Assembly (NCBI GenBank): GCA_963793095.1
Contig: CAWBYY010000011.1
Location: 277,034-341,033, forward strand
Source: an uncultured Chloroflexia bacterium
Lineage (GTDB): Bacteria > Chloroflexota > Anaerolineae > Anaerolineales > UBA4823
Direction of reading: 5' to 3'
Length of the DNA: 64,000 nt
Shown: positions 1,156 to 19,901 of the stretch, one piece after another
How the letters are laid out: each line of letters opens with the position of its first letter
How positions within the stretch are numbered: position 1 is the stretch's first letter
Made by a program: the position numbers and the translations under genes
The notes under the pieces: model-generated
What the model saw: the letters and a program-made list of their open reading frames with translations, nothing else
What the model was told of the DNA's origin: nothing
Database searches by the model: none

Positions 1156-1175
1156 GTTTGGAAGGGTAGAAACTT

Positions 1176-1210
1176 ATACCCCGGCATAAATTCCGCCGGG
1201 GTATTTTTAT
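1176..1210 (+). terminator. Rho-independent terminator between convergent clp and SCP2 genes
   Basis: 10-bp GC-rich stem AUACCCCGGC/GCCGGGGUAU with about a 9-nt loop, followed by UUUUUAU, about 20 nt after the TAG stop. Confidence 0.8.
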
Positions 1211-1267
1211 AGCAAATTGGTAGTGGACAAGAATTTTAGCACGGGAGGAAATTGCTTAATATTTAAA

Positions 1268-1690
1268 TCAGTCTCCAAGGAATTCGCTGTCAATCCTGCT
1301 GATTGAATTGGCGACCGCCCGGATGAATTTTGCGTTCTGCATAATTTTGAGCATGTCTCCCTTGACCTTGAATACGCCCTTTACCACCAGGGCAAGAAAG
1401 TCTTTTTCCCCTTGAACGACTGACCTGTAATCCGGGTATGTGCCGGTGACCACAAAACCCGGCTCCACTTCCTCCGGATCACTAAGCATACGGGCTTCAG
1501 AGCACCTGCCAGCGGAGGCTGCCAGGAAAACATAGGCTGTCTCTTCCAGCCCGCCTCCGGGAGTGAGCACGAACAACCAGTCTCCATTAAAACTTACGCC
1601 CCATTTCGCGCCGGTTTTTAAGATCGCTTCATCCGCGTTGATCAGTTTTTTCCATTCATCGCACCATTCCTGCGAAGGGTAAAGGACCAT
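1268..1690 (-). CDS. SCP2 sterol-binding-domain protein
   Basis: 140-aa ORF. The C-terminal half (GEKDFLALVVKGVFKVKGDMLKIMQNAKF) looks like the SCP2 lipid-carrier fold. It lies directly downstream of an acyl-CoA dehydrogenase gene. Confidence 0.7.
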   Translation of the reverse strand: MVLYPSQEWCDEWKKLINADEAILKTGAKWGVSFNGDWLFVLTPGGGLEETAYVFLAASAGRCSEARMLSDPEEVEPGFVVTGTYPDYRSVVQGEKDFLALVVKGVFKVKGDMLKIMQNAKFIRAVANSISRIDSEFLGD

Positions 1691-1723
1691 TGTTTCCTCC
1701 TTGTTGACTTTTGGGTTTTTGTA

Positions 1724-2983
1724 TTAGAGCGTTTCCAGGTCATACCAGTAGCGGGCGTTCTCAAGCGTTTTGAGCCCTTTGCCTCCCATCCACAGCCCGA
1801 TCATCTTCTGGTCGCGCCAGTGTTTCTCAATATCGAACTCGCGCGAATAACCATATGAACCCATAAAATCCATCGCCCGGCTGCAAGCCCGTTCAACTGA
1901 ATTGCTGGCGTATAACGCCAAACCTCTGGCCTTTAACTCGTGCCTTTCGTCCCACGGGTTCCAGCCGCAGGTTTCCGGATAATCCAACCCCCTGGTGTAT
2001 GCCCACATCCAGGCGGAAGTCGATTCAATCAGCATGGCGACCTCGGAGAGCATGTCCGCTACAAGGCTGTGTTCTTTGAGCTTTTTGCCTGCGATCACCC
2101 TCTCGTCGGTCCATCTTTTAATGATCTCATACACGCTTTTCATCACCCCCACGCTCATCGCAGCCGAGGCGATGTTTCCCATCGTAATCGCCCGGGTCCA
2201 GTATTTCAGGTCATCGCCGGGGCCGTGCAAGCGGTATCTTTCCGGGACTCTAACTTCGCTGAACCATATATCCGAGTTTATATCGGCGGACATTCCGGCT
2301 TTCTGGTAAGGGTTGCCAACCGAGACCCCTTCCGTATCCGCCGGAACCAGTATCAATGCAAAATCGTTTGGGTCATCTGATCCTTTGCGGGTTGTACAGA
2401 CCAGGACAAACAAATCTCCCACTGTGCCGGAGTTGGACGACCAGATTTTATGTCCGTTGATCACCCAATGGTTCCCTTCAAGCCTGGCTGTGGTCTGGAT
2501 CGTCCTGCCGTGCATTCGTCCTACATTTTCAATGTCCGCGCCGCTGGCGGGTTCGGTCATGACATGGCCTCCGACATATAAATCCTCACCGCAGAACTTG
2601 GGCCCGAATTCCTCCAGCAGCACCATGTTGCGGTGGGGTTCCAGCAGGATGGGTATCAACCCCCAGATTGAGCAGATACAGGCTGTGGCGAAACCGGAGT
2701 CAATCCGGGCGAGCTCCTCGCACACGATATTGCTCAGCGCCATTGGCTCCGGCATCTCAGTGCCGCCGACTTCAGCCGGAAAAAAGGCCGCGTTGACCCC
2801 GAGGTCAACCAGCACTTCTTTCATCAGCGGCTTGATCAATTTGTGTTCGCGCCAGTCATCGTCAACATTCTGGCGAATGGGTACATAGCGGTCCTCACCC
2901 CACTGCCGGATCACTTTGCCCATGTCTTTCAGGAAGTCCGAGACCCATTCCCGGGGTCGGATGAAGTCGTCGATGGTAGCCAT
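1724..2983 (-). CDS. Acyl-CoA dehydrogenase family protein
   Basis: 419-aa ORF with ACAD-like middle and C-terminal regions (TEPASGADIEN, WSSNSG, DQKMIGLWMGG). Confidence 0.8.
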   Translation of the reverse strand: MATIDDFIRPREWVSDFLKDMGKVIRQWGEDRYVPIRQNVDDDWREHKLIKPLMKEVLVDLGVNAAFFPAEVGGTEMPEPMALSNIVCEELARIDSGFATACICSIWGLIPILLEPHRNMVLLEEFGPKFCGEDLYVGGHVMTEPASGADIENVGRMHGRTIQTTARLEGNHWVINGHKIWSSNSGTVGDLFVLVCTTRKGSDDPNDFALILVPADTEGVSVGNPYQKAGMSADINSDIWFSEVRVPERYRLHGPGDDLKYWTRAITMGNIASAAMSVGVMKSVYEIIKRWTDERVIAGKKLKEHSLVADMLSEVAMLIESTSAWMWAYTRGLDYPETCGWNPWDERHELKARGLALYASNSVERACSRAMDFMGSYGYSREFDIEKHWRDQKMIGLWMGGKGLKTLENARYWYDLETL

Positions 2984-3154
2984 TTACCCCTCCTTACAAT
3001 TCTTTATTCTGGTTAATAAATTAATGGCCGTCAAGAATAAAGGCATTCTGTAAAATTTTACCTTATGCATGGTATCTACTATAATTATTTAAATATCATA
3101 TCTTGAGATCCTAAATTTGGTTAATTGTTTCAAGGTCAAAACATTCAAATTTAT

Positions 3155-3442
3155 ATGGCTATATCAAACCTTCTCTTTGTAGGGACCGGGATTCTTTTTA
3201 TCGCTCTTTCAATTCCGCTGATCATGGGAAGAGTCAAGCCCAATCACTGGTACGGTTTCAGGTTTGCGGTTACCCTTAATAATCCCCGCATCTGGTACCC
3301 GGCTAATCGCCTGGGCGGTATAATGCTGCTCCTCTATGGACTGGCGGTGCTTGGAGGGGCGCTTGGTTTGACCCTGTTAATGCGATTTTTTATCTGCAGA
3401 TATCTGAACAGTTATTTTCTTACTGTCTTGTTTGTATTTTAA
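3155..3442 (+). CDS. SdpI/YhfL-like small membrane protein
   Basis: Hydrophobic ORF containing RVKPNHWYGFRF, typical of the SdpI family. ATG at 3155 is in frame with track ORF 3125..3442. Confidence 0.55.
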   Translation: MAISNLLFVGTGILFIALSIPLIMGRVKPNHWYGFRFAVTLNNPRIWYPANRLGGIMLLLYGLAVLGGALGLTLLMRFFICRYLNSYFLTVLFVF

Positions 3443-3481
3443 TCTCAGGCGCAGTCTTGATCTCTATTCTAAGCTGGCGTT

Positions 3482-4024
3482 ATGCCTGGGAACTGGAAAA
3501 GAAATTACAGCAAAATGGCTCAAATTAACTTCCACGAAGAACAGAGATTACGCCAGTGGTGGGTCTGGGTGCTGGTCGTAATCGGGGTTGGGTTAGGCTG
3601 GTGGGGATTCATCCAGCAGATTGTGCTGGATCAGCCCTGGGGAACAAATCCAGGACCGGAATGGGCGATCGTCCTGACATGGTTATTGACCGGGATTGGA
3701 CTACCGCTTTTTGTCATCTACGTAAAGCTGGATGTAACCGTTTCTGGCGAGTCGGTGGATATCAATTTCCGCCCGCTCACCCGGCGGGTTATACCGGTAG
3801 ACCAGATCGCCCATTTCAGAGCGCGCACTTATTCGCCGCTGGGAGAATACGGGGGCTGGGGGCTGCGCGGTCTGGGGCATAACCGGGCGTATAACATCAG
3901 CGGGAACCAGGGCGTGGAACTGGTGCTTATGGATGGCCGGATCGTTCTGATTGGTTCATTGCGGGCGGAAGAGCTGGCGGAGGCGATTTCAAGTTCGATA
4001 GAAAACCAAGAAAATGGGGACTAA
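3482..4024 (+). CDS. Hypothetical membrane protein (two TM helices plus a PH-like soluble domain)
   Basis: 180-aa ORF with GC-rich codon usage like the backbone and two hydrophobic segments. No motif recognised. Confidence 0.5.
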   Translation: MPGNWKRNYSKMAQINFHEEQRLRQWWVWVLVVIGVGLGWWGFIQQIVLDQPWGTNPGPEWAIVLTWLLTGIGLPLFVIYVKLDVTVSGESVDINFRPLTRRVIPVDQIAHFRARTYSPLGEYGGWGLRGLGHNRAYNISGNQGVELVLMDGRIVLIGSLRAEELAEAISSSIENQENGD

Positions 4025-4051
4025 TTTTTAAACTCACACGTTCGAATTGCA

Positions 4052-4101
4052 AAAAATCCAGAACTTACCTAATGAAACATAATGTATTATTCTGGATTTT
4101 T
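4052..4101 (+). terminator. Possible terminator (long-loop hairpin)
   Basis: AAAAAUCCAGAA ... UUCUGGAUUUUU, a 12-bp inverted repeat with a 26-nt loop just after the stop at 4024. The loop is unusually long. Confidence 0.35.
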
Positions 4102-4430
4102 CCTAACCATTTAGAGAACTTCTTCGGGAATTTTCTGAGAGTTATTTGCTTTAGCCTCTTTTGATAATTTCTTTCTAATAATCTGAGCGTTGCTCTAATG
4201 GTTGGATTGGTCACTTAAAAAATTAACCAATCTTCTTATATGATGTGATTTTATTTCACAGGTCATTACCTATAAATGTTTGTCTCTGTTGGAAGAACCC
4301 ACCAGCGATCATCATATGCATTTTGAAAGATAATGTACAAGAAATTTCCCCTTTTAAACGGATAAAAAATTTAGATTCTGAATAATTCTTGAGATTTTTA
4401 TTCTAATAGATTAGTTATTTCATCACTAAT

Positions 4431-5469
4431 TCAAAAATTCAGTCTAACAACAGATGTCAGATTGCGGGGTTTATCCGGGTCTAATCCATAACTGATAGAA
4501 CGATGATAGGCCATGAGTTGAAGAACAGGCATGTATAATACTCCTCGCACCAATTCTGGCAGGTCTGATTCGAAGTTAATATCAGCACCTTTGTCTGCTA
4601 TAACCAGAGTATTTCCGCCAATATTCTGTATCTCATTAATTACATCGGTTTCCATTTTTTGATTTTTCTCACCAAGAAGTCCAATTACTAAAGTTTTAGA
4701 ATCAACCATTGATATTGGACCATGGCGGAATTCAAGAAAATAGAAAGGCTCAGAAATGGCCAGCGACATCTCTTTTAATTTTAAGACTCGCTTCGCTTGC
4801 AAGCCCATAACGATATCCACTCCCCAAAAAGTAATACTTATTAATTTTATGATCGTTGCCTAATTCATATGCCAAATTCTCGTATTTATTGATCAGTACT
4901 TTCCCCATGGAAGGTAGTGGGTGAAGCGAGGAAAACATTCCAGCGTCATTACTCGAGAAACATGACAATGCACAAATAGCTACATAAAGCGATGCGAAAG
5001 AACGGGTCTGTGCGACACTTTCCTCCTGACCAGCAGGTATAACTAAGGAAAGATCTCCAAGAGAAACCAGATTTAAATCGCCATAATTAGTTAGCGTGAT
5101 TATTTCTCCACAATTTTTTTCTTTAAATCGCGCTGTGGCTTGTAAAGTTTCTGTAGTTGAACCTGATCGGGATATAGCAAACAACAAAGATTTTTTTTCA
5201 ATCGTGGGTAGAATTGTATTTGGCGAAAGTAATAGTTCAGATGCAGGAAAAGCTTTGCAGTTTTTCCCCGACATCGATTGCATAGTGGAAGCTGCTGCGA
5301 GAGACAGATAGTAGGTACTTCCACAACCAGTGAACAATATCTGGCTGTAATTATTCTTCCACAAATCTAAAAAATCAGGCTCAATTTCCTCAGAAACCTC
5401 AATTGCCTGCTTCCAAGCATTAGGCTGGGATTTTATCTCATTTAGGGTAGCAAATTGTCTGTCACTCAT
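4431..5469 (-). CDS. SIS-domain sugar isomerase (AgaS / GlmS-C-terminal-like), one frame break
   Basis: ORFs 4750..5469 and 4431..4820 are consecutive parts of one two-SIS-domain protein (FTGCGSTYY, SRSGSTTET, EFRHGP). The frames rejoin if the T4 run at 4773-4776 is one base shorter (..SLKIKEMSLAI..). Confidence 0.75.
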
Positions 5470-5647
5470 TAATTTATCCCTAATAATGGAATTGTATTTT
5501 AGTTGCCGGATTGAATTATTAAAACCTAAAAAAATCTCTTTATGGTGATATCACTATGTTATATGCTTATTCTATAAATTACCTGAATGCTTATAATTTA
5601 GTTATTGTCCATTTTCATTAAAAAGCCAAAATTATTGAAAAATCTTA

Positions 5648-6586
5648 TCAATCCCAATCTGAAAGTACTAAATCGAGCTCGGTCAAACTAATACACGCTA
5701 GCCCAACTTTTGTTCTGGCTGGGGAGTTGTCTGGAATATCTTCTAATCGCCCTCCTTCGTATATAAGGTACAAAAAATCCTGATATTCGAAAGGGGTTCC
5801 AAACCACACTGCGCCGTCATCCCAGTCACCCCTAGATCCTAGTTCAAAAACTGGATTATGAGAATATTTTTCCCAATCGATCAAATTTCTGGATCTTGCT
5901 AACCCGAATCCTATTGGTTTATCTTGTCGAGTGACATTATTACTACCTGCATAAAGCATGTAAAATTCTCCTCTACGCTTGATTATCCTTGGAGTTGTCA
6001 CCTCGTATTGATCCCACGAACCAGGTTCACCATTAAATAGAATTGGTTCGGGATTTGTTTGCTCAATATCTCCAGACATTGAAAGAATTGCTGAATAAAT
6101 CCTGTACCCTTCCGGAGGTTTTTTCTTTACAAAGAACAGATACAACCTGTCTGTATACAAACAAACTTCTGGTGACCTGCCATATAAAATCGATGATGTT
6201 TGTTTGGTGAATATCAATCCGTCAATACTTTTTGCCATACCAATTGAATCATCGCCTTCCCCGATTGCGCTATAAAACAACAATATATCATCATTAAGGG
6301 ATAGGGATGCAGGGTCAAAGACATGCCGGTTGTCAAATTGTTGAGGCCCAGGGGAAATTATCACCCTGGCATCGCTGGAAATAAAAGTTGCTACCCCCAT
6401 TTTCATCGCATCAAGGGGAAAAGATTGGCACAATATTCTTTCTTTTTCACTCGCAACTGCTCCAACAAATAAGTACAGATTATTCTGGTGTTCTAAGATA
6501 TCTGGTGTTGTCACCGCATCTGGAGCAACTGTGCCGGTTTTTGGTTCCAGGAATGGGCTGTTAGAAAATCTTTTAAATCTAATCAT
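5648..6586 (-). CDS. Beta-propeller glycosidase-like protein (GH43/GH130-like)
   Basis: 312-aa intact ORF. Repeated blade-like segments with conserved D/E and W (FDPASL, YSAIGEGDDSIGMAKS, YAGSN, GLARSRNLIDWEK). Family assignment is tentative. Confidence 0.5.
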   Translation of the reverse strand: MIRFKRFSNSPFLEPKTGTVAPDAVTTPDILEHQNNLYLFVGAVASEKERILCQSFPLDAMKMGVATFISSDARVIISPGPQQFDNRHVFDPASLSLNDDILLFYSAIGEGDDSIGMAKSIDGLIFTKQTSSILYGRSPEVCLYTDRLYLFFVKKKPPEGYRIYSAILSMSGDIEQTNPEPILFNGEPGSWDQYEVTTPRIIKRRGEFYMLYAGSNNVTRQDKPIGFGLARSRNLIDWEKYSHNPVFELGSRGDWDDGAVWFGTPFEYQDFLYLIYEGGRLEDIPDNSPARTKVGLACISLTELDLVLSDWD

Positions 6587-6638
6587 ATATAGATTTTGAA
6601 ATTCACTCTATTGTTTAATTTTGTTTCCATTACAGGTC

Positions 6639-7969
6639 TTATTGGTTAGCAAGACGCCATAAGGTAACAGAAGTAATCTCAGCTAAGACTTTAAGGCCAT
6701 TGATATCCACAACATTAAAATCATCCATGTAAGTGTGTAGATAAGGCCAACTGGTTGATATGAGTTTTGCCAGGTAAGAAGTAGGTACTCCTGCCAAGAT
6801 GAACGGGCCATCATCAGAGGCATATTCCAGCAAGGTACCTCAATCATATAACCAAGTTCACTACAAATTTTTTCCAAGAACCCGTTAATTTCCGGAGAGT
6901 TCCGAACAAGTTTTCCAAGACAAATTGATTCGGTGATGTAGTATAAATGATCGCCATTCCCGATAATGTCCATTACAAGCGCAGCCTTGTATTTCGATGG
7001 ATCTGGTTTTACATACTTCTTAACATATGCTTCTGAGCCTATCTCACCGTATTCCTCTGCAGTAACTGAAATAAACTCGATAGTGCGTTTAGGAGGAGGG
7101 AGATTTGAAAGAACCCGTGCGGTTTCAAGGTTTACTGCAACGGCAGTTGCATTGTCGCAGGCACCCGGACCAAAGGCATTATCATGGTGCGCAACAAGGA
7201 CAACCTTTTCATCTGGTTTTTCAACACCTTTTATTGTCGCGATTATGTTCAAGCCATGGCTTTCAACCGATTCAGAATCGACGGTAAGCCTCAGTTTTAC
7301 GGGAATACAATTCCTGGGTTCGTTTGAACCATGAGGGTAAGGCATACCACTCACGCAGCAGTCTCTTTTAGCAGTTGGCCATCCTCATAAGTAACCGCCA
7401 CCGCGGGTACTGACAGACCTTTTGGACCAGAGAGCAGGTCGGTTTGTAATATATTTCCTTGTAATCGCGAATGCTCAATGAAACCAGCAACGCCACGTTT
7501 AATCAACATTTCTGTAGGACCCTGGGGCGCGGTTTCATCTGAAGCGTTGTCCAGACTTAGTGCTCGAGGGGGATCGCGCATAACAAAAGTGTTTTCAAGA
7601 TCAATGCCTTCATAATCTTCTAGCTTACCCTGTCCTACATAACGAAGCTCTGCAACTCTTCCCTCTGGGGGAGTTGAGCCTGAGCCAAGAATGGCAACCC
7701 CAAACAATTCGCGTTCAACAGGTTCGACAATCTGGACCCGGGTATCGTGAAGATACCAAGCATTTATCCCGGGCACTTTGTCCACGCTCACTTGAACGTC
7801 TAATTTCTTAAACTCGTCTTCCACATATCCAGCTGCTTTCCATTCATTCTCTGTCGCTGCATGCCGAGGCAAATTCAATGAGAGCTTTTACATCTTCAGC
7901 CATACGAGCTGATGATATTGAATCCCTGATTAAATTAATTCCTTTCTGATCCGAATCACTATCTTTCAT
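6639..7969 (-). pseudogene. M28-family (PA-domain) aminopeptidase, at least three frame breaks
   Basis: Pieces lie in three frames: MKDSDSDQKG..ALIEF, then 7351..7878, then 6683..7354 (HHDNAFGPGACDNATAVA metal-ligand region), then 6639..6833. Breaks are near 7866-7875, 7352-7357 and 6833-6845. Confidence 0.7.
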
Positions 7970-8050
7970 ATTCATCTCCTTGCAAAAGATATTTACAACA
8001 GAAAATCGGCACCACAATAACGAATATATAAATCAGTGAAATGAAATTTC

Positions 8051-8092
8051 CAAAAATGGGCGAGCCTGGAAGGGTGAACCTGAGGCTCGCCC
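8051..8092 (-). terminator. Rho-independent terminator downstream of the SBP gene
   Basis: Minus strand: GGGCGAGCCU ... AGGCUCGCCC, a 10-bp stem followed by AUUUUUG, about 25 nt after the stop at 8118. Confidence 0.75.
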
Positions 8093-8117
8093 ATACCCCA
8101 ATAAAACAGATTATGAA

Positions 8118-10418
8118 CTACTCAAGCGGCTTGTCAACCCAATATAAAAGATCCTCGCGTGCAAGGAATTTTTCAAACCACTCATTGAGCGGGTTCTGGC
8201 GCAGATAATCAGCATCTTCAGGCAGGTCCTGAGATCTTTCAACATAATACGAGGCCGAATCCTCCCAGTATAGCGGTGATTCAGGGTTGAAGGCTGTCTC
8301 AGCATCCTGCTGGTAAGTGCGAAAATCCAGGAATGTGTCGAAGATAAACTTCAACTCATCCGGGTCAGTGGCCACACCGGAATGGGCATTCATGGCTTCT
8401 ACAACAATTGGTAAAACTTTTTCAGGCATCTCTTGGACGTAACGATTGAAAAGGTAGGAGAGAGCCATTATACGTAATGCAGCTTCTTCATTAGAAGCCA
8501 GCCATTCTTCTGTAGAGGCGATATTGCTGTACCACAGACCGGCAGGACCGAGAATTTCTGCTCCTCCAATCAGCTTGAATTCATCCGGATGGTTCATCAG
8601 CAGGTTAATTTCGGATGGCAAACCGCCCATATAGAAATCACCTTCCCCGCCAATCATGGCAAGAGCAGCTTTTTCATCGTCTGGGAAGTTGATTGTGGTG
8701 ACATCATCCAGTGTGAGGTCGGCCTGCTCCAGGACTGCAGTGAGCAGAGGTTCATAGTTAGCAAGGTAGATTGGGAAGGTTTTTCCCTCGAGCTGTTTGA
8801 TTGTAGCGACTTTGGCTGCTTCAGGGTCGCCCAGTTCATCGAGGAATTCCTCATAAGATTTGGATTCGCCCTGACGGCCTAAGACTACGAAGCCTTTGAA
8901 TTGGTTGACGTTGAGGAAGTTCTGCATCTCTGGGACAAATTCATAGAACGGGAAGTTGCAGACAACACAGGTGTTAACAGTATCTAGAGAGCCGTTAGCA
9001 AGGGCCTGGATGGAAGGACCGCTTTGGGTGAGCCATTCGAACTGCAGGTCGAATTCCTGAACTCTTCATCCCAACCGAACTCATCAGCAACACTCCAGAA
9101 TTGGTAGTCAAAGAAGGGTGTGTTACCAACCCGGATAACATATGGTTCAGAGGGTATTTGTACCTGAGGAGGTGGGGGCGGTGCTGGTTCAGTTCCAATA
9201 GTTCCCAATTCGGCATCTACCCAAGCAGTCAAATCCTCATTCTGGAGGAATTTTTCAAACCACTCATTGAGCGGGTTCTGGCGCAGGTAATCGGCGTCTT
9301 CAGGCAGTTCCTGAGATCTTTCAACATAATACGAGGCTGAATCCTCCCAGTATAGCGGCGATTCAGGGTTGAAGGCTGTCTCAGCATCCTGCTGGTAAGT
9401 GCGAAAATCCAGGAATGTGTCGAAGATAAACTTCAACTCATCCGGGTCAGTGGCCACACCGGAATGGGCATTCATGGATTCTACAACGATAGGAAGCACA
9501 GCATCCGGATATTCTTGAACGAAACGATTAAATCGGTATGAAAGCGCAGCAATCTTCTGCGCAGCTTCTTCATTAGAAGCCAGCCATTCTTCTGTAGAGG
9601 CGATATTGCTGTACCACAGACCGGCAGGACCGAGAATTTCTGCTCCTCCAATCAGCTTGAATTCATCCGGATGGTTCATCAGCAGGTTAATTTCGGATGG
9701 CAAACCGCCCATATAGAAATCACCTTCCCCGCCGATCATGGCAAGAGCAGCTTTTTCATCGTCTGGGAAGTTGATTGTGGTGACATCATCCAGGGTGAGG
9801 TCGGCCTGCTCCAGGACTGCAGTGAGCAGAGGTTCATAGTTAGCAAGGTAGATTGGGAAGGTTTTTCCCTCGAGCTGTTTGATTGTAGCGACTTTGGCTG
9901 CTTCAGGGTCGCCCAGTTCATCGAGGAATTCCTCATAAGATTTGGATTCGCCCTGACGGCCTAAGACTACGAAGCCTTTGAATTGGTTGACGTTGAGGAA
10001 GTTCTGCATCTCTGGGACAGATTCATAGAACGGGAAGTTGCAGACAACACAGGTGTTAACAGTATCTAGAGAGCCGTTAGCAAGGGCCTGGATGGAAGGA
10101 CCGCTTTGGGTGAGCCATTCGAACTGCAGGTCGAAGTCCTAACTCTTCATCCCAACCGAACTCATCAGCAACACTCCAGAATTGGTAGTCAAAGAAGGGT
10201 GTGTTACCAACCCGGATAACATATGGTTCTTCCCCTACCGGCTCTTCTTCAGCCGGTTCTTCAGACTCTGGCTCCTCCACATTCGTCTCTTCTGCAACAG
10301 GCTCCTCAGCTGCTGGAGCTTCTGTTGGCGCAGGAGCTGGTTGGCATGAGCCTAACAACATACCAAGAACCAAGAGAATGGCTATTGATAAGTAAACAAA
10401 GCTTATACGAACGTTCAT
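8118..10418 (-). pseudogene. Lipoprotein ABC substrate-binding protein (NMT1/THI5-SsuA-like) with an internally duplicated SBP domain; two frame breaks
   Basis: ORFs 10077..10418 (signal peptide with LLGSC lipobox, acidic linker), 8984..10009 and 8118..8927 join into one reading frame. Domain 1 runs through a PAPPPPPQVQ linker into domain 2 with no stop between them. Each domain is broken between GWDEE and DFDLQFEW. Confidence 0.7.
8160..10229. repeat. Tandem direct duplication, two units of about 1 kb with a period of about 1082 bp
   Basis: 8879-8938 and 9961-10020 are identical except for the last base, and 9120-9148 equals 10201-10229. Long stretches are near-identical, with a more diverged patch around 8420-8500 / 9500-9580. 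Confidence 0.9.
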
Positions 10419-10545
10419 TTTCTACTCCTTTTTAAATAATTCTAAATAAAATCGAATTTATAAAAAATCTTGATATTATTTTGTTATCACCTCCTTATTC
10501 TGATGAAAAAAATGTTTAACCTCATAACTGGTTGTTTCTAAAAAT

Positions 10546-11370
10546 TCACTTTGTACCCACAATTGATGCCACAACGCCGATGCTGGATCGTCGTTCTGTC
10601 CAAGAAGTAATTCTTCTTTCAATATAGGCAATAATCGTATCCATTATCACCGCCAGAATGCTATAGACAATAACCAGCAAAATTATGCCTGCAGTTCTAA
10701 GGTAAGTCTGTTGCAGGATGATTAAATAACCCAAGCCTTGTTGTGATCCCATAAATTCAGCTGCCACATCCAATCCCCATGATGCAGCCGCAGCCACACG
10801 GATGGCACCGATCAGGTGAGGAATGATGTAAGGCACAATCACAGTGGAGTAAATTCGCTGCCGGTCTGCCCCCAGAGTGAGTGCTGCCCGAATATAAATG
10901 GTTGGTACATTTCTGATAGCTTCAAGAGTGGTGACACCTAAAATAACTGAAGTGCCCAGAGCAATTAATGCAATTTGTGGTTCTCGTCCAATACCGAACC
11001 AGAGGATAAATAATGGAATAAGCGCAAAAACGGGAACTGGGCGCAAAAAATCAAACACTGTGCCCATTGTCTCTCTTACAGCTCGGCTGTATGCCATAAT
11101 TAACCCGGATATTGTTCCAAATATTACGCCAATTGCAAAACCAGTAAGGACCATTAATACGGAGGTCAATATGGCAGCAGGTAGGATTTTGTACAATCCC
11201 TTAAAAGTTACCCACAAATCTGCAGGAGTGGGAATAAATAATGGCTTGACAAGTCTAAATTCTGATATAAACACCCAGATAATTATCAATGCGACCGGAA
11301 CGATTAATTTTGGTAATACCTGAATTGTGGAGAACTTACCTAAAAATTTTTTCTTCGAATATGTTTCCAT
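10546..11370 (-). CDS. ABC transporter permease (NitT/TauT-type)
   Basis: 274-aa polytopic ORF with a binding-protein-dependent transport inner-membrane signature (EAIRNVPTIYIRAALTLGA). Confidence 0.85.
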   Translation of the reverse strand: METYSKKKFLGKFSTIQVLPKLIVPVALIIIWVFISEFRLVKPLFIPTPADLWVTFKGLYKILPAAILTSVLMVLTGFAIGVIFGTISGLIMAYSRAVRETMGTVFDFLRPVPVFALIPLFILWFGIGREPQIALIALGTSVILGVTTLEAIRNVPTIYIRAALTLGADRQRIYSTVIVPYIIPHLIGAIRVAAAASWGLDVAAEFMGSQQGLGYLIILQQTYLRTAGIILLVIVYSILAVIMDTIIAYIERRITSWTERRSSIGVVASIVGTK

Positions 11371-11470
11371 ATATACCCATTATTGTTTTTAGTTAAATAA
11401 AGATGTAGATTTTTAAGCCGCTTTGAATTACTAAAAAATAAATACTTATAAGAGGAGTACTGTGAACCAG

Positions 11471-12238
11471 TTAAATTTCATCAGAAGAGCCTAAAAGGAC
11501 AAAACCCAAATCGCGTCTCATTTCCTGAAATTCTGGTTGAGTTTTCAGGTCTGGAGGCCTCGGCCTTTCGAAAGGTATATCGACAATGCATTTCACTTTT
11601 CCGGGCTCATTTGACATAACAACAACTCGATCTGACATATATAGTGCTTCTTCCAAATCGTGGGTAACAAATATCACGGTGATTGGATTATTGCTCCAAA
11701 TATTTAAAAATTCAGTTTGTAATTTAGCTTTTGTTAGGACATCTAAAGCAGCAAAAGGCTCATCCATCAGTAATACTTCTGGACTAGTTGCAACAGCTCT
11801 GGCAACATCAACTCTTTTGCGCATGCCTCCTGATAATTGCCGCGGGAACAAGTTTTCAGCATCTTTCAATCCAACTAAATTAATGTGATGGTCTGCGATC
11901 CTTTTCATTTCCTCAGGTTGTAATTTTTGGATCCTCAACCCGTATTCAATGTTTTGTCTGACCGTATACCAAGGGAAGACTGCATCATCTTGAAAAACCA
12001 TTGTTCGATCTGGTCCCGGATGAGTTATTTCATTGCCTTTTAAAAAGACTTTCCCTTCTGAAGGTGGTAAAAGCCCAGCAATAATATTTAATAATGTTGA
12101 TTTTCCACAACCCGAAGATCCAACAATTGTGACAAATTCTTGATCGAGGATGTTCAAATGAAAATCTTCAATAATCCAATGATGATCGTAGCGGAAATAA
12201 ATATGCTCTAAATTAATAATGACTTTCTCTTCAATCAT
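11471..12238 (-). CDS. ABC transporter ATP-binding protein
   Basis: Walker A GSSGCGKST, signature LSGGMRKR, Walker B LLMDEPF. Confidence 0.9.
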   Translation of the reverse strand: MIEEKVIINLEHIYFRYDHHWIIEDFHLNILDQEFVTIVGSSGCGKSTLLNIIAGLLPPSEGKVFLKGNEITHPGPDRTMVFQDDAVFPWYTVRQNIEYGLRIQKLQPEEMKRIADHHINLVGLKDAENLFPRQLSGGMRKRVDVARAVATSPEVLLMDEPFAALDVLTKAKLQTEFLNIWSNNPITVIFVTHDLEEALYMSDRVVVMSNEPGKVKCIVDIPFERPRPPDLKTQPEFQEMRRDLGFVLLGSSDEI

Positions 12239-12304
12239 AATTGCATAATAATAGGTGTTGATCCGGGTCTTTTTGTGTGAGTGCTGAATAAATTATTAAA
12301 ATAT

Positions 12305-13072
12305 TTAAATTTTGGCTAAGATTAATTTGACTCCCAGATGACGAATCCGTTCAGCATCACCAGCTGAAATATTAGTATCGGTAATGAGATAGTCGACCTC
12401 TTCAACAGGCGCGATTAATGCTGTTCGGACGATGCCAAATTTTGAACTATCTGTTACCACAATCAAATTGCGAGCAATGCTGATGATATTGCGATCCGTT
12501 TCTGCATCTTTTAAAGATTCTGAAGTGATTCCCTGATCAATATCAATTGCAGAGACACCCATGACTGCCTTGTCTATTCGCAAACGGTTAAGCGTAAAGT
12601 TACCTATTTCACCTACAAGAGTCAGGTGTTTAGGTACGAGTGTGCCTCCTGGAACTATGACCGCAATTTCCGGGAAGTTAACCATGTAATTAATGATGTT
12701 AATTGCGCAGGTTATGACAGTAATACCATGTTTATTGGTTAAATTTCTTGCTACCTCCTTTGTGGTCGTACCGCCACTCAAAAAGATGGTGTCCCCATTT
12801 TCTACAAGATTGGCAGCATATCTGCCTACTGCTTCCTTTTCTTTGCGATTAAGTTGAGCGCGGGTCAAGATTGGCAATTCGAGTTCGAATTGGTAATAGG
12901 TGCTTGCCCCACCTCGATTTCGTTGTATGAGATTTTTTTCAGACAGGTCTCTTAAATCACGGCGAATTGTAGCTTCGCTTACTCCAAAACGTGCACTCAG
13001 ATCATCAACACCAATATCTTCAGTTTCGCGAATGAGGCTCAGAATTTGCCGTCTTCTTTGATTAACTTTCAT
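12305..13072 (-). CDS. DeoR/GlpR-family transcriptional repressor
   Basis: N-terminal HTH (VSEATIRRDLRDL) plus a C-terminal DeoR sugar-phosphate sensor domain. Confidence 0.85.
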   Translation of the reverse strand: MKVNQRRRQILSLIRETEDIGVDDLSARFGVSEATIRRDLRDLSEKNLIQRNRGGASTYYQFELELPILTRAQLNRKEKEAVGRYAANLVENGDTIFLSGGTTTKEVARNLTNKHGITVITCAINIINYMVNFPEIAVIVPGGTLVPKHLTLVGEIGNFTLNRLRIDKAVMGVSAIDIDQGITSESLKDAETDRNIISIARNLIVVTDSSKFGIVRTALIAPVEEVDYLITDTNISAGDAERIRHLGVKLILAKI

Positions 13073-13381
13073 TGAATATATAAAATTACTAAACGGATAT
13101 TTAAGAAATCATCAAAATATGATAATATAATAGCAATATTATGATCAATTGTCAATCAAAATAAACAAAAATTTGACTATTATGTGCAAATTGGATATAA
13201 ACTGATCAATTTAGGTTCCCATTATTATATAAAACTGATTTTTGTATGAACATCAATATAATGTGTATGAGATCATATTTCTATTCTGGTTGATCCTCAT
13301 CCTTGCTTAAAAATTAATCGTAAAAAAGGACTAAATTTGATAAAAGTAAAAACCGAAATTATTTTGCATAATGGAGTTTAA

Positions 13382-14285
13382 TTGATGAGCAATAAAGATG
13401 TCGATATTCTCGTGGTGGCGGAAATCAACCCAGATATCATTCTTACTGGGAATGTTGAGCCAGATTATTCCCAGGTTGAGACTCTAATTGGTGATTATTC
13501 TCTTACAATTGGGAGTTCGGGTGCAATCTTTGCATGTGGTGCAAGCCGATTGGGATTGAAAGTTGCTCTCATTGGAATTGTTGGAGATGATTACTTTGGC
13601 CATTTTATGCTAGATAGTTTAAAGTTGCGAGGTGTTGATGTAACAGGGTGCATAATTGATCCCCAAAAAAAAACAGGAATTAGTGTCATCCTTAATACGC
13701 GGAGAGGATCGTGCTATTCTTACATATACAGGTACAATCCAGGCTTTACGTAGTCAAGATGTTGACCGGTCATATTTAAGACGCGGACAACACCTGCATG
13801 TATCCAGTTGTTTTTTACAAGAGGCACTGCGCCCCGGGCTCCCCAAGTTATTAACCGATGCACATCATAATGGCATGAGTGTCTCTGTAGACACAAATTT
13901 TGATCCAAAAAACGAGTGGAATCATAATATTTTAAAAATTCTCTCCCAAACGGATATTTTCTTCCCAAACGAGCATGAAGCATGTGCAATAAGTCGGCAG
14001 CAAGATGTTTATAATGCTCTATCCTTTCTTGCAGGTATTGTTCCAGTTGTGGCAATTAAAAGAGGTAGATTAGGAGCAATTGTCCAAGATAACCAAAATC
14101 AGTATTCTTGTGAAGCTTTTCCTGTAGAAGTTGTCGACACTACGGGTGCTGGTGATAGTTTTAATGCAGGTTTTTTATATGGATATTTGCATTCTTTTCC
14201 AATAAATGATGCGCTGCAATTGGGTTGTGCTTGTGGTGCAATATCCACCCAATCCATCGGGGGAACCGATTCTAACCGACTTTAA
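13382..14285 (+). CDS. PfkB-family carbohydrate kinase, one frame break
   Basis: ORFs 13382..13753 and 13656..14285 are the N- and C-terminal parts of one kinase (DTTGAGDSFNAGF motif). The frame changes between ..GISVILNT and GEDRAILTY near 13697-13703. Confidence 0.75.
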
Positions 14286-14412
14286 ACGAGACTTTAGAAT
14301 TTATATCAAAACAGGAATCTCAACCTCAAAATAATCGATAGTAAACAATAAGGTTATTTGGTTGGTCAGGATTTTCTAATGGTAATTGCAATTAAAATCA
14401 AAAGGTAATCGT

Positions 14413-15738
14413 TTGGTGTATCCTGACCCAATTTCTAATTTAACCTCACTACAAAAAAGGTTTTCCAGTTGGCATATGTTCAGTATGTTCATACAACCCT
14501 TATGAATTGGAAGCAGTTTTGCGAAAAGCCAAAAAAGACGGAAAACCAGTACTGGTAGAATCAACTTCCAACCAGATCTACCAGATTGGGGGTTAAACAG
14601 GAATGACTCCAATCTTGTTTGTGAGTTTATTAAAGAACTTAAGGAAAGAATAGGAATTAATTCTGATCAGGTGATGTTGGGCGGAGATCATCTTGATCCC
14701 TACTCAAGGCTAAATGAATCTGCAAGTGTTGCTATGGAAAAAGCGACTCAATTGGTTATAGATTATGTACAAGCACGTTATTTAAAAATTCATTTGGATG
14801 CAAGTATGTGCCTGGGCGGAGATATGAAAAGCGTGCTACCAGTCGAGATTGTAGCAGAACGCACCGCTGTTTTATGCAGAGAAGCAGAAGAAACCTGGAA
14901 CAGATTATCAGATGTGAAGATCCTCCATATTATGTGATTGGAACAGAAGTGCCAGCCCCGGGTGGTGCCCTTAATGAAGTTGATGATTGATTTAGATGTA
15001 ACAAGTGTTGAAAGCGAGAAAGAGATGCTAGAGGCCACTAAAAAATCCTTTGTAAGAAATGGTATACATTCAACTTGGGAACGTGTCATTGCTTTGGTTG
15101 TCCAACCTGGTGTGGAGTACAGTGTCACATCCGTTCATTCCTATAATTGAATCGCAGCTGAAGAATTATGAGAATATGTTAAAAATGTCCAAGGTCTGGT
15201 GTTTGAGACACATTCTACAGATTATCAGAAGCGTAGCGCACTCAAAAAAATGGTAGAAGATCAATCTGCAATATCTGAGGGTTGGGCCAGCACTTACATT
15301 TGCCTTTAGAGAAGCTGTTTTTGATTTAGAATTAATTGAGAATGAGTTGTATTCTGGTGATAAAAAATTTACGCTTTCAAAGTCACAGGCTATAGTTGAG
15401 ATGGAGATGATGAGAATTCCAGCATAATGGGAGTCATACTATAAAGGAACTCTGAACAGCAAAGGTTTGCCCGTCGTTTAAATCTTAATGACCGGATTTG
15501 ATATTGCTGGGCAAAACCAAGGGTCAAATCATCTTTTAATTGTTTGTTTGAGAATCTACAAAAACAGCCAACCCCGCTTTCACTTATAAGCCAGTGTCTA
15601 CCTTATCAATATCGGAAAGGGTTTAATAGACAAGCCAATTTACGCATTTCACCATTAGAATTGATTGTGCATAAGATCAATGGAGTGGTGGATGACTATT
15701 ATTATGCTTATTATCTGGATGTCCGGGAGATTAAATGA
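14413..15738 (+). pseudogene. GatZ/KbaZ/AgaZ-like tagatose-bisphosphate aldolase subunit, heavily degraded
   Basis: Collinear with E. coli GatZ across several frames (PVGICSVCS, VLVESTSNQ, GGDHL, KIHLDASM, VIGTEVPAPGG, VVQPGVE, ETHSTDYQ, VGPALTFA). In-frame TAA at 14594-14596 and 15425-15427, TGA at 15499-15501, and at least five frame changes. Confidence 0.8.
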
Positions 15739-16098
15739 AAAGTTGATTTGCTACCCGAGAATTCAAATGCCGAAGAGCATCAGATTAATAAATACAATGC
15801 TGGCAAGTTTCTGATATTTGGATTGATTATCAAAAGGATTTAGCACCTCTGTATTCTAACCCTAGATGCTGGTATACACATCACATTCCCAGATGTGCAA
15901 GGTAATTGATTATTAAGGTTTTTTCCAAGTAATTTCTGAAAATCCAAACAGCAAATATATATATACACAAAATAAAAAACCCATAATGTGTGGTGCTTTT
16001 AAACTTAAATCTGGTATTGAATATTCTTGGCACTTTCAGCAATTATTTTTACATTAAATATCTTGAATTTACCAAGTTTCAAACCAAAAGTTATAAAA

Positions 16099-17799
16099 TC
16101 ACTCGTTCAGGTTGTAGATTCTGACGTAATCGATTCCATTAATTCTGACGGTATGTTCCGGTGATAGATCGCCCAGGTGGTCCATCAGTTTCTTGGGGGA
16201 ATCGTGCTGCCACTGGTTGATATAAATCACTGCATAATCGGCGGACAAATAATCCCTGAGGCGCCAATCACTGATTTCTTCATCCAGAAAGAGCGGGTCA
16301 GCGATGAAACCAAGCGAGGCGCTGTACCAGTTGAACGCGAGCGGAAACCAGGCGATTACCCGTTTATCCTGTATCGCTGGTTTCTGGCGCAGGTAAATGG
16401 CGGCTTCGCTGAGCCCTTCGCCCCAGCCTGTGTCAAGACCGTCCCTGAGTGCTTCGTCAGGGCTTCCCATAATTGGATTGAAATAAGTCAGGTAATAAGG
16501 ATGGTGCGGGATAATTATTACAAGCTGCACAACCAGCAGGATTCCGATGATTCCGTACCTGATTAAATTCGGATTCAAATTTAACCAGCGGGAATTTATC
16601 CAATCCGCAGTGGCGATCCAGCCGATTCCAGCGATTAAATTCAAGGGCAGAAAAACAGGCAGGAGATAACGATCGTATTTTTTAGCCCCAACGCTCATTA
16701 CCAGGGTGAAAATAATCACATAAAGAAGTAAGTAGAGCACATAAAACCGGCGTTCATACGCCAGGGCAGGGGGTTTTTTCCGAATTATAAAAATCAGAGC
16801 CAGAATACACCCCACCCAGACCAGGAAGGTGCTGCGCCAGAGATATGCTTTGATATAGAACAGAACCGGATTTACCGGATCAGGATCTGCCAAACCGGAG
16901 GCTGGTTCGTTATCACTTGCAGCAACGCCTACCACCGTTGCGGTAAAAGTATCCCTGTAAAGGGAGGTGATTAATTCAAAGGGGGTAACCCACATCGCCG
17001 GCCAGAACAGGGTGAAGAAGATGATGATCAATAAAATCCACCCAAAGAATGGAAACACATATTTTTTTAGAGCCAACCGCAGTCTGTCACGGTTTGACCT
17101 GCGCCAGGTTCGAAAGAGTTCCAGCAGGGTGAGCAAACCGACGACCGGTAGGAAAATCAAACCCTGGGTCACGGTCAGGATGGCGAGACTGGTAGCAATA
17201 CTCGAAACAATCAGCCCATGCAAGCGGTTCTCTTTTAAAAAATAAATATAGGACAGCAGCGCCAGGAACAAAAAACTGCTGATCAGTCCGTTGGTATGGA
17301 AAACGCGCGAGTGGGCGATGTGAAAGGGGTCCAGGGCGATCACGATAAAGCCGGGAATGACATACCAGAGGCTGAAGATTTTGCTGGAGTAATAAAAACT
17401 GACCAGCAGTGTAAGGATGATAACCACCGCCTGAATTAAGCGGGCAGTGGACAGGACCTGAATCAATGGCGGGCCGTGCCTCGAAAAAAGCTGCTGCAGT
17501 TTTGTATCACCCAGCGAAGTCTGTCCAACCTTGCTGTACCTGGGAAACCGGAGTTTAAAGGCTGCGGAGCCAATCCAGTAGCTGGTCACTCCCGGATGCC
17601 CTGACTGGTAAGTTGAGGCATAATCATTATGTGAGATTGCATAGAAGAAGTTAGCTGACCTTTTCCCCCAGGTTGGTTCATCGGCTGTTACGAACTGCCC
17701 GGGCTGGATCAACCTGGGAAGAGCAAGCAGAACTGCCAGTCCTGCCAATACCAGCAGGAATCCCGCCAGAGTTTTTCTGTCCATGAGTGATTGTTGCAT
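16099..17799 (-). CDS. GT-C fold glycosyltransferase (PMT / ArnT-like, GT39/GT83 type)
   Basis: 566-aa ORF with more than 10 TM segments, an acidic first-loop motif (TADEP) and a C-terminal soluble domain. Confidence 0.7.
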   Translation of the reverse strand: MQQSLMDRKTLAGFLLVLAGLAVLLALPRLIQPGQFVTADEPTWGKRSANFFYAISHNDYASTYQSGHPGVTSYWIGSAAFKLRFPRYSKVGQTSLGDTKLQQLFSRHGPPLIQVLSTARLIQAVVIILTLLVSFYYSSKIFSLWYVIPGFIVIALDPFHIAHSRVFHTNGLISSFLFLALLSYIYFLKENRLHGLIVSSIATSLAILTVTQGLIFLPVVGLLTLLELFRTWRRSNRDRLRLALKKYVFPFFGWILLIIIFFTLFWPAMWVTPFELITSLYRDTFTATVVGVAASDNEPASGLADPDPVNPVLFYIKAYLWRSTFLVWVGCILALIFIIRKKPPALAYERRFYVLYLLLYVIIFTLVMSVGAKKYDRYLLPVFLPLNLIAGIGWIATADWINSRWLNLNPNLIRYGIIGILLVVQLVIIIPHHPYYLTYFNPIMGSPDEALRDGLDTGWGEGLSEAAIYLRQKPAIQDKRVIAWFPLAFNWYSASLGFIADPLFLDEEISDWRLRDYLSADYAVIYINQWQHDSPKKLMDHLGDLSPEHTVRINGIDYVRIYNLNE

Positions 17800-17834
17800 G
17801 CGTGAATTATAAACCCGCTGAAGAATTACAAATT

Positions 17835-17931
17835 AGGAGTGCTACTCCTGATTTACGGTATTCATGGGCCATTTGTATCCGGGACCGTTTACAACAGGTA
17901 CAGGGTTCAATAGTGAAGGAGTAGCACTCCT
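17835..17931. repeat. Pair of 15-bp self-complementary elements in inverted orientation
   Basis: AGGAGTGCTACTCCT at 17835-17849 and its exact reverse complement AGGAGTAGCACTCCT at 17917-17931. Each can form a hairpin with a 6-bp stem and 3-nt loop. Confidence 0.85.
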
Positions 17932-17973
17932 TGTAGGAAAGCAGTTGAATCCTGGCTGTTTGGCTAGATCAAT

Positions 17974-18864
17974 TCAGGGGTGGTCGAATTCCAGAACCTG
18001 GACCACACATTCGCCCAGGTTGTTGTCCTCAGTGCAGAGTGTGATGGTGGCTTTGTAGGTATTTGTGACCGGGGACATACCGGAAAATGCAGATCCTATA
18101 TAGGCTCCTTCACCAGGCAGCAGGCTTGTTTCGCCGGGAGGGCAAACTGATGCTGAATCCGTAAACGGCGAATTGGGGAACAGCGTCCCGGTGCCGGCCA
18201 GGTCTGTATCCAGGTTCTGGATGTTGATTCTGGCGGATTCAAAGGGCGTCTGCCCGGTATTGATCACCTGGATCATGGCAGCCGAGGAACCATCGCAAAG
18301 CTGAACTCTTGAAAAGGACGCTCCGAACGCAATCTCCGCACTCACCGGCGGAGGCGGGGGTTCAACAACCTCCAGGGCGCTGGTTTCTCCCTGCACACTG
18401 GTCGTCCCTCCCCACACCCAGCAGAAAGCTCCCGGTTTTGCGGGATTCTCGATGTACCACCAGGTGCTTTCAGGATTGCGCCCGGCGACAACCGATTCCT
18501 GGCTGGTCAGCAGGTAACCAAGAATATCGTATGCCTGGCTGGGACCCAGGCGGCAGTTTGTGTTTTCGCGGGCGCTTATTGTGGGTACCTCAGGACCCCC
18601 TTCGGTTTCAGCGGGCAGGCTGCCCCCCGGGGTAACTACTGGAACCGGGGCAGTCTCTTCCGTAGGAAAGGGTTGGCCGGAAGCCGCGGTTTGCTTGATA
18701 GATAGGGCGTCTGCGGTCATCACCAGCGCGGTGCTGGTGGCGGAGGTCTGGTTTGATTGGGCGCGCTGGGCGAAAAAAATATAGGCGCTGAAACCGACAA
18801 CCAGGCAGAAAATCAGGGCGACCAGCGCAAGGATCACAAGCCACAGTATTTGCTTGGGCGTCAT
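17974..18864 (-). CDS. Membrane-anchored secreted protein: Thr/Pro linker, SH3b-like domain, Cys-containing C-terminal domain
   Basis: N-terminal TM helix. NTNCRLGPSQAYDILGYL..WWYIENP..FCWVW resembles bacterial SH3. Paralog of 18880..19764. Confidence 0.65.
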   Translation of the reverse strand: MTPKQILWLVILALVALIFCLVVGFSAYIFFAQRAQSNQTSATSTALVMTADALSIKQTAASGQPFPTEETAPVPVVTPGGSLPAETEGGPEVPTISARENTNCRLGPSQAYDILGYLLTSQESVVAGRNPESTWWYIENPAKPGAFCWVWGGTTSVQGETSALEVVEPPPPPVSAEIAFGASFSRVQLCDGSSAAMIQVINTGQTPFESARINIQNLDTDLAGTGTLFPNSPFTDSASVCPPGETSLLPGEGAYIGSAFSGMSPVTNTYKATITLCTEDNNLGECVVQVLEFDHP

Positions 18865-18879
18865 GGTACTGGCTGGATT

Positions 18880-19764: not shown

Positions 19765-19871
19765 CTTCAGCTCCTCCTTAAAAGAAAAACAGAGATCGTT
19801 AATTGGTTCAGGAATTAATAAACCAGGTTATCCCGGGGTGTATCCGGATTTATACTGCTTGCGGTCTCTAT

Positions 19872-19901
19872 TATATGCGAATATATGCGAATATATGCGA
19901 A
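19872..19901. repeat. Tandem decamer repeat (TATATGCGAA x3)
   Basis: Three perfect 10-bp units in the divergent intergenic region between 19764 (minus-strand start) and uvrA. Confidence 0.9.

Follow-up and report, generated by a model that had tools for sequence, protein, structure and literature searches.

The locus considered here raises the question of whether an AT-rich block of sugar-catabolism and transport genes in an uncultured Chloroflexia bacterium was acquired from elsewhere, and whether it is now being lost. The block occupies positions 4025–16098 of a 64,000-nucleotide stretch of DNA (the window, G000:C11:277034-341033), where G000 is the source genome and C11 the contig. Coordinates below are window positions unless a contig is given. 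G000 is a metagenome-type assembly (a metagenome-assembled genome, MAG) of 4.54 Mb in 12 contigs, 90% complete with 3.8% estimated contamination, and it was compared with two congeners, G001 and G002, both MAGs that are 89–90% complete. An initial annotation had described the block as a horizontally acquired catabolic locus undergoing pseudogenisation. Our overall reading, held with reasonable confidence, is that the block is an accessory island carrying a mosaic variant of a Chloroflexota operon, in a degenerate copy whose GatZ/KbaZ-like gene is dead and whose ten further small insertions or deletions (indels) are divided about evenly, in likelihood, between decay and error.

Accessory Insertion between Two Convergent Genes

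The evidence that carries this reading is synteny. The block separates a gene for a DUF6141 membrane protein from a gene for a GT-C-like membrane glycosyltransferase. On contig C6 of G002, the orthologues of these two genes lie tail to tail with ~20 bp between them, and nothing there matches positions 4005–16092. The same contig is collinear with window positions 1–1206, 3155–4004, and 16093–64000, with protein identities of 72–93% and a DNA identity of 81%. The comparison with relatives that the initial annotation had called for therefore revealed an empty site flanked left and right by perfect synteny, the empty site being that of one congener (G002) alone, and the proposed accessory insertion was borne out. 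Positions 4025–16098 are an accessory, lineage-specific insertion at the point where two convergent native genes meet at their 3′ ends.

The distribution of the island genes was also patchy. No orthologue of the GH130-like gene or the M28 peptidase gene of the block was found in G001 or G002, and a search for GH130-like matches at E ≤ 1e-30 was positive in 3 of 300 same-order genomes and negative in all 31 from the same family. Protein clusters P0001 and P0066 had one member each, with no second assembly containing these proteins, and megablast of the block found nothing in E. coli genomes. Given the empty site in G002 and this patchy distribution, parsimony favours gain in the G000 lineage, and the block was probably acquired horizontally.

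Base Composition of the Block and Its Host Genome

The block is clearly AT-rich, as had been noted from its sequence. A scan of GC content in 1-kb steps gave 0.35–0.49 over positions 4001–16000 compared to 0.46–0.60 elsewhere in the window, and the whole block averages 40.3% GC between flanks of 52–58%. Its spacers are 55–406 nt long with 21–37% GC, and the equivalent spacers in intact homologous operons range from a 16-nt overlap up to 176 nt. Over the initial ~890 kb of C11, 12-kb windows below 44% GC were found only where they overlap the block, in surroundings of 50–54% GC. Across G000, the per-kb GC content averages 48.2% (sd 6.3%) and ~22% of 12-kb windows fall below 44%; the block lies at about the 5th percentile of a compositionally heterogeneous host genome.

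This heterogeneity is large, with a range of 41–56% GC at the 50-kb scale. Contigs C2, C4, and C11 each show a gradient from ~53–56% to 41–43% GC across hundreds of kb. Such intragenomic variation is unusual, and it seems to be native to the genus. Specifically, a ~100-kb region of C4 with 39–42% GC is gene-for-gene syntenic with contig C17 of G001 (39.5% GC), and the genus therefore possesses native AT-rich compartments. AT-richness by itself is no sign of foreign DNA in this genus, and the argument for foreign origin that the initial annotation drew from it does not stand without support from synteny. Another AT-rich 12-kb stretch, at C11:1405-1417 kb, is missing from both G001 and G002.

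The low GC content of the block was also considered as a product of decay. The intact island genes have a third-position GC content (GC3) of 0.30–0.38 compared to 0.58–0.64 in the flanks, which indicates that the AT-richness was inherited from AT-rich sources. Drift after pseudogenisation was rejected as its cause; the GC3 of the intact genes is equally low, and the intactness of open reading frames (ORFs) was poorly correlated with GC content genome-wide (r = 0.17). Coverage of the block by long ORFs lies at about the 5th–9th percentile, and other AT-rich windows mostly retain long ORFs. The lowest long-ORF coverage in the genome was that of G000:C11:968000-984000 (0.28 for ORFs of ≥200 aa, at 39–42% GC), which may be another decayed or non-coding island.

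Several results weigh against horizontal transfer. No tRNA and no Rfam family was found in positions 1–20000, no direct repeats were found at the borders, and no integrase or other mobility family was found among the ORFs checked with Pfam and homologues. The tetranucleotide profile of the block has a correlation of 0.87 with that of the genome, and it is closer to the genome's low-GC pool (0.93) than to its high-GC pool (0.81). This places the block only at the 12th percentile, so that the tetranucleotide check suggested earlier failed to mark it as foreign. These features, together with AT-rich compartments syntenic between congeners, fit a history in which the block is ancestral to the genus, was precisely deleted in G002 and lost in G001, and owes its AT-richness to native heterogeneity. 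We regard that history as quite improbable, since searches of both congeners and of 31 same-family genomes did not turn up the island genes, the closest homologues of the island's modules occur on unrelated contigs that otherwise carry no genes close to those of G000, and the block is the sole AT-rich segment of its kind in the ~890-kb region described above.

Acquisition by the G000 lineage remains our preferred reading, and the block is an ordinary genomic island. Like strain-specific islands with decaying catabolic operons, it is absent from the conserved site of a congener, deviates locally in composition, is patchily distributed, and holds a pseudogene. Unlike typical islands of this type, it has no integrase, tRNA target, flanking repeats, or insertion sequences, and the genome-wide composition test was not significant.

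Gene Content and Intact Homologous Operons

Genes of the block were identified by Pfam matches and by alignment to intact homologues, including tblastn alignments, and the gene content agreed with the accessory module first described (Table 1). The minus strand carries, in order, the genes for DeoR, the ATPase, the permease, the substrate-binding protein (SBP), M28, the GH130-like protein, and the SIS protein, while the PfkB–GatZ pair lies across deoR on the plus strand. Four genes had been called intact, those for the GH130-like protein, permease, ATPase, and DeoR, and each aligned full-length against intact homologues. The transporter is of the NitT/TauT family, with an NMT1-type SBP, a TauC/SsuC-like permease, and a TauB/NtrD-like ATPase; BPD_transp_1 and ABC_tran matched above their cut-offs, and the best NCBIfam matches (ntrCD, SaoA/SaoP, TauC) were below the equivalog cut-offs. 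The M28 gene, which has an ATG start codon at 7975 preceded by AAGGAG, encodes a PA-domain aminopeptidase whose closest solved structures are 2ek8 and YwaD. The GH130-like protein gave sub-threshold matches to Pfam PF04041 and PF04616, its closest relative is 58% identical, and its relatives in the PDB are remote only. No LacD-type aldolase was found in the block, even at E ≤ 50, or anywhere in the G000 assembly, and the same relaxed threshold revealed no remnants in the block of GH114 or of the reference operons' neighbouring genes. The total number of promoter-like and terminator-like sites in the block was at chance level.

Homologous loci were reached via the GH130-like protein; a scan of genome contigs with the single protein gave nothing, whereas a profile scan was successful. 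An intact operon, with all genes on one strand, was present on metagenome contigs L022 and L024–L026 and in Chloroflexota/Anaerolineae MAGs L031–L036. It encodes DeoR, an ABC ATPase, a permease, an SBP (393 aa), an M28 peptidase (439 aa), a GH130-like protein (315 aa), and an SIS protein (344 aa), together with a DeoC/LacD-type aldolase (324 aa), PfkB (318 aa), and GatZ (~410–420 aa); some of the loci also have GH114. The GH130-like and SIS genes occur in either order in intact loci, and the operons of L032 and L036 are without GatZ and aldolase genes inside the fetched operon region.

Mosaic Origin of the Island Copy

The identity of the island genes to those of L024 is uneven. It reaches 67–82% for the SBP, permease, and M28 genes, 63% for the ATPase, 44–53% for the SIS, GH130-like, and PfkB genes, and 36% for DeoR. 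The island DeoR is 84% identical to that of AT-rich contigs L120/L121 (39.6% GC) compared to 36–38% for DeoR of the canonical operon. On L120/L121, deoR is likewise divergent from a PfkB gene, 61–78% identical to that of the window. The operon there differs, however, with URO-D-like genes, a B12-binding protein, and a CUT1 ABC transporter, and the remaining genes of these contigs have no close orthologue in G000. The island M28 is 78–88% identical to its homologue on marine contig L112 (42% GC), whose GH130-like and SIS proteins are merely 51–57% identical to those of the island.

The island copy is thus a mosaic of at least two modules, the first with the transporter, M28, GH130-like, and SIS genes, and the second with DeoR divergent from PfkB–GatZ. 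The location of the modules' nearest relatives on metagenome contigs of ~40% GC explains the composition of the block. Compared with the canonical order, the kinase–GatZ part is inverted, and the aldolase step is missing. On L111, the contig of the closest GH130-like relative, the downstream SIS gene at 1542–2105 is truncated by ~119 codons at its 5′ end and contains a frameshift; that lineage may be losing the operon also, or that contig may have errors.

Table 1. Features of the island, its junctions, and the neighbouring part of the window.
Feature	Positions	Strand	Remarks
SCP2-like gene	1268-1690	-	Within 1207-3154 (50-55% GC); not in G002:C6
Acyl-CoA dehydrogenase gene	1724-2983	-	Within 1207-3154 (50-55% GC); not in G002:C6
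Left flanking gene, DUF6141 membrane protein	3482-4024	+	Pfam PF19638; native; convergent with GT-C gene; G002:C6 orthologue 73% identical
Left junction spacer	4025-4430	.	29.6% GC; no recognisable gene remnant, tRNA, or repeat
SIS-domain sugar-phosphate isomerase/deaminase gene (AgaS/GlmD-like)	4431-5469	-	Pfam SIS; intact homologues 344 aa; two frames in tblastn
GH130-like / 'GH43-DUF377' five-bladed propeller protein	5648-6586	-	Intact, 312 aa; full-length alignment to 315-aa homologues
PA-domain M28 aminopeptidase gene	6642-7975	-	Four frame breaks; otherwise 78-88% identical to intact marine homologue
NitT/TauT (NMT1-like) lipoprotein SBP gene, two tandem domains	8118-10418	-	Pfam NMT1 24-26 bits (cut-off 20.5)
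ABC permease (TauC/SsuC-like)	10546-11370	-	Intact; Pfam BPD_transp_1; 72% identical to L024 permease over residues 1-273 of 274
ABC ATPase	11471-12238	-	Intact; Pfam ABC_tran; 63% identical over residues 10-255 of 265
DeoR/AgaR-type repressor	12305-13072	-	Intact; full-length alignment
Divergent control region, deoR/pfkB	13073-13384	.	23% GC; near-consensus sigma-70-like site at 13155-13127, minus strand
PfkB sugar kinase gene	13385-14341	+	Two frame breaks
GatZ/KbaZ-like pseudogene	14453-15738	+	No start codon; 6 in-frame stops; at least 3 frameshifts
Right junction spacer	15739-16098	.	No remnant of LacD-type aldolase or mobility genes
Right flanking gene, GT-C-like membrane glycosyltransferase (name from the initial annotation)	16099-17799	-	Native; G002:C6 orthologue 75% identical; no Pfam match

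The window holds a second, smaller difference from G002 at positions 1207–3154, which contain two genes (Table 1); in G002:C6, ClpB and an SdpI-like gene lie ~57 bp apart at this site.

GatZ Pseudogene

The clearest sign of decay in the island is the GatZ/KbaZ-like gene, which had been described as broken many times with nonsense codons and is so. Its in-frame stops lie at 14594 (TAA), 14935, 15148, 15169 (TGA), 15425 (TAA), and 15499 (TGA), three of the six being TAA and three TGA. Consensus errors do not produce six nonsense codons, and the island GatZ is therefore certainly a true pseudogene. G000 also holds an intact, full-length GatZ paralogue at G000:C11:811147-812415, 46% identical to the GatZ of L024. 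The island gene is an old pseudogene, dispensable owing to this native copy. Beside the intact paralogue there is a PfkB-like gene at ~810092–810769, in what is apparently a native sugar locus. A nonsense-type pseudogene was observed outside of the island as well, at G000:C4:103383-104228 in the native AT-rich region; compared with its G001 orthologue, that gene has five in-frame stops.

Ten Small Indels: Decay or Consensus Error

The other four broken genes carry indels of 1–2 nt only, with one in SIS, four in M28, three in SBP, and two in PfkB. The SIS break is a +1 shift at ~4782 (A3 to A4 in ATTAAAAGAG). Those in M28 are −2 at ~7869, +1 at 7363, net +1 at ~7313, and −1 at 6840, and those in PfkB are +1 at 13696 and −1 at ~14274. 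Earlier break counts were correct for SIS, low for PfkB (one), and open-ended for M28 (at least three), and the SBP gene, thought to be broken twice, is a tandem pair with three indels. The view that five of nine genes are pseudogenising accordingly holds for GatZ; with small indels only in the other four, the decay was possibly overstated.

The density of these indels is high for this genome. The block has 10 indels in 8.9 kb compared to 7 frame-splits in ~108 kb of background, a 15-fold excess (P ~ 7e-10). The background consisted of the GC-rich flanks aligned with G002 (3 in ~48 kb, a rate of ~1 per 15 kb) and the native AT-rich C4 region aligned with G001 (4 in 59.6 kb). The indels spare the four intact genes, which together span 3.3 kb (P ~ 0.01).

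Two sources of error were considered and rejected. The first was systematic basecalling error at specific motifs. Among the break motifs, TAAAAGAGA is common to SIS and M28, CAGGAATT is common to M28 and SBP copy B, and GACCTGCAG is located at the SBP break. Inside long intact ORFs, the break motifs occur at the genome background frequency, and 76 of the 100 genomic sites of GACCTGCAG are inside long ORFs. The second was that AT-rich DNA is error-prone as such; the split rate in the native AT-rich C4 region equals that of the GC-rich flanks. The excess over background, an identical indel shared by the two SBP copies, the spared intact genes, and motifs that are not error-prone were all counted for real decay, as were the long ORFs retained in other AT-rich windows and the damaged SIS gene of L111.

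Other results weigh against real decay of these four genes. The SIS, M28, SBP, and PfkB genes have 10 indels and 0 nonsense codons, compared to 3 indels and 6 nonsense codons in GatZ (Fisher P = 0.003). In relative-rate tests, unique changes numbered 17 vs. 24 for M28 and 26 vs. 19 (or 19 vs. 20) for PfkB, so that neither gene showed significant acceleration, at the low power that long branches allow. The ratio of +1-class to −1-class shifts was 8:2 in the block and 5:2 in the background, a +1 predominance that is alike in both and does not discriminate between the readings. In the GC-rich flanks, three genes at 32809–34460, 34447–35408, and 52784–53900 (GGT-like, SelD/AIR-synthase-like, and M24 Xaa-Pro peptidase) each contain a single-base indel that splits a frame left intact in the G002 orthologue, in the contexts C7 to C6, CC/T-run, and CC to CCC; these frameshifts lie at ~33912, ~35100, and ~53037. 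These splits in conserved genes are probably consensus errors, and such indel errors would then exist in this assembly.

An island that is still functional would fit these observations, with only the redundant GatZ copy dead and the ten indels being long-read consensus errors, concentrated here by lower coverage of an island that part of the population lacks or by strain heterogeneity. M28, the gene most often broken, is also the best conserved, and the L032 and L036 operons indicate that absence of GatZ and aldolase need not kill the pathway. This explanation requires a special cause for the 15-fold local excess, given that the rate in native AT-rich DNA is no higher than background, and it must account for four spared genes and for the same indel in both SBP copies at a motif that is not error-prone elsewhere. 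We consider it plausible, though not quite probable. For the ten indels taken by themselves, real decay and long-read consensus error are about evenly balanced; they would be either inactivating mutations that arose very recently while selection was relaxed, or consensus errors in a strain-variable, poorly covered island.

Tandem SBP Gene

The SBP gene consists of two complete domains, copy A at 9149–10418 and copy B at 8118–9148, with a period of 1081/1082 nt; a single 393-aa SBP is present in the homologous operons. Tandem Repeats Finder is blind to this repeat (period >500 nt), which was detected by a separate repeat search. The domains are joined at the extreme end of domain A by an in-frame Pro-rich linker of 66 nt, a unique sequence found nowhere else. 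Outside of the 3′ end and an ~85-nt patch at ~60% identity, the copies are 99–100% identical, which indicates that the duplication is older and that gene conversion has homogenised it, as judged from the aligned copies. An extra C (+1) in CGAC[C]TGCAG is common to both copies (~10132 and ~9050), and copy B has a second extra C (~9058). The shared break lies within an 18-nt near-palindrome, TTCGACCTGCAGTTCGAA, with a CTGCAG core (10120–10140 and 9040–9060).

The mosaic of 100%, 99%, and 60% identity between the copies, in a metagenome-type assembly with some estimated contamination, could also arise from an assembly artefact, in which foreign DNA was mis-joined to give the block or two strain alleles were placed in tandem to give the SBP repeat. 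Both junctions of the block, however, fall exactly in the ~20-bp convergent gap with synteny continuing on either side, and the unique in-frame linker at the end of the first domain is the pattern of a real fusion. An artefact is very improbable on these grounds, and we take the island and its duplicated SBP gene to be real.

Tandem fusions of substrate-binding domains are found in ABC importers such as GlnPQ of Lactococcus. As in those importers, the island gene has two complete SBP domains connected by a linker within a single reading frame. Unlike in GlnPQ, the fusion follows a lipoprotein signal and joins one domain to the other and not to the permease, and both domains have a frame break in this assembly.

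Inferred Function and Comparison with Known Systems

The function of the operon was approached through its intact relatives. For L024, NCBIfam scores were all below the curated cut-offs, given here in brackets: 203 bits for AgaR (260), 114 for the AgaS family (529), 162 for GlmD (580), and 541 for agaZ_gatZ (569). The best NCBIfam matches of the L024 transporter proteins were to TauT/NitT-type components, those of its SIS protein were GlmD/GlmS-C/AgaS, and those of the kinase (IolC, ribokinase, and tagatose kinase) were all below cut-off. The aldolase of the intact relatives scored above cut-off as a LacD-type tagatose-1,6-bisphosphate aldolase (PRK12858, 257 bits vs. 184). The initial annotation had guessed at an amino-sugar or tagatose-like pathway, a suggestion that fits the AgaR-like, AgaS/GlmD-like, LacD-type aldolase, and AgaZ/GatZ matches of the intact operon, as far as family profiles can tell.

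By homology, the operon would import an amino-sugar-containing conjugate via the TauT/NitT-type ABC importer, and the conjugate would be trimmed by the M28 peptidase and the GH130-like protein, a putative glycosidase or phosphorylase. By analogy with the E. coli aga/gam system, the sugar may then be deaminated and isomerised to a ketose-6-phosphate (tagatose-6-P or fructose-6-P) by the AgaS/GlmD-like enzyme. In the E. coli aga/gam pathway, AgaS has been proposed as a GalN-6-P deaminase/isomerase (PMC3668189). The ketose-6-phosphate would finally be cleaved to triose phosphates that enter glycolysis.

The aga/gam regulon of E. coli serves GalNAc/GalN catabolism with AgaR, AgaS, AgaZ/KbaZ, and KbaY. 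The operon is similar to aga/gam in its DeoR-type AgaR-like repressor, two-SIS-domain AgaS/GlmD-like enzyme, GatZ/AgaZ-family protein, and tagatose-bisphosphate aldolase step, and it would follow the same logic from amino sugar through ketose-6-P to triose phosphates. It differs in having a TauT/NitT-type ABC importer instead of a phosphotransferase system (PTS), in having no AgaA/NagA deacetylase and no class II KbaY, in the aldolase of its relatives, which is of the class I LacD type and absent from the window, and in its extra PA-M28 aminopeptidase and GH130-like genes. With equivalog-level scores not reached, the relation to aga/gam is one of resemblance, not membership.

A second system for comparison is the tagatose-6-phosphate pathway (LacC/LacD), with the tagatose-6-P enzymes of the GatZ family. 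The intact relatives share with it a PfkB-family kinase, a LacD-type aldolase, and a GatZ-family protein. The window, unlike this pathway, is without an aldolase and its GatZ is dead, and the kinase matches are below cut-off.

In L024, the ATPase–permease–SBP–M28–GH130-like cassette at L024:1689-7085 has 42–44% GC, and the DeoR, SIS, GH114, aldolase, PfkB, and GatZ genes around it have 54–65% GC, which suggests that this five-gene cassette moves as a unit. The AT-rich ATPase-to-GH130 cassette in the GC-rich L024 operon and the two-module mosaic of the window both point to a broader proposal, namely that the conserved ten-gene operon is an undescribed pathway for an amino-sugar-containing glycosylated amino acid or peptide, that its sub-cassettes are exchanged as units between lineages, and that the window copy was caught during loss. 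We put this proposal forward tentatively, as an idea that is rather unlikely to hold in full.

Significance

The main value of this locus is as a cautionary case. Island calls in this genus need synteny evidence, which is present here. 'Pseudogene-rich' islands in long-read MAGs should likewise not be taken at face value, as single-base indels interrupt conserved genes in this very assembly; the spectrum of nonsense codons to indels, set against the background rate on syntenic DNA, is a usable read-free flag for such errors. Beyond the island itself, an operon with M28, GH130-like, AgaS-like deaminase, and TauT-type importer genes is recurrent in Chloroflexota and has no characterised counterpart, and its intact form is a reasonable target for substrate discovery.

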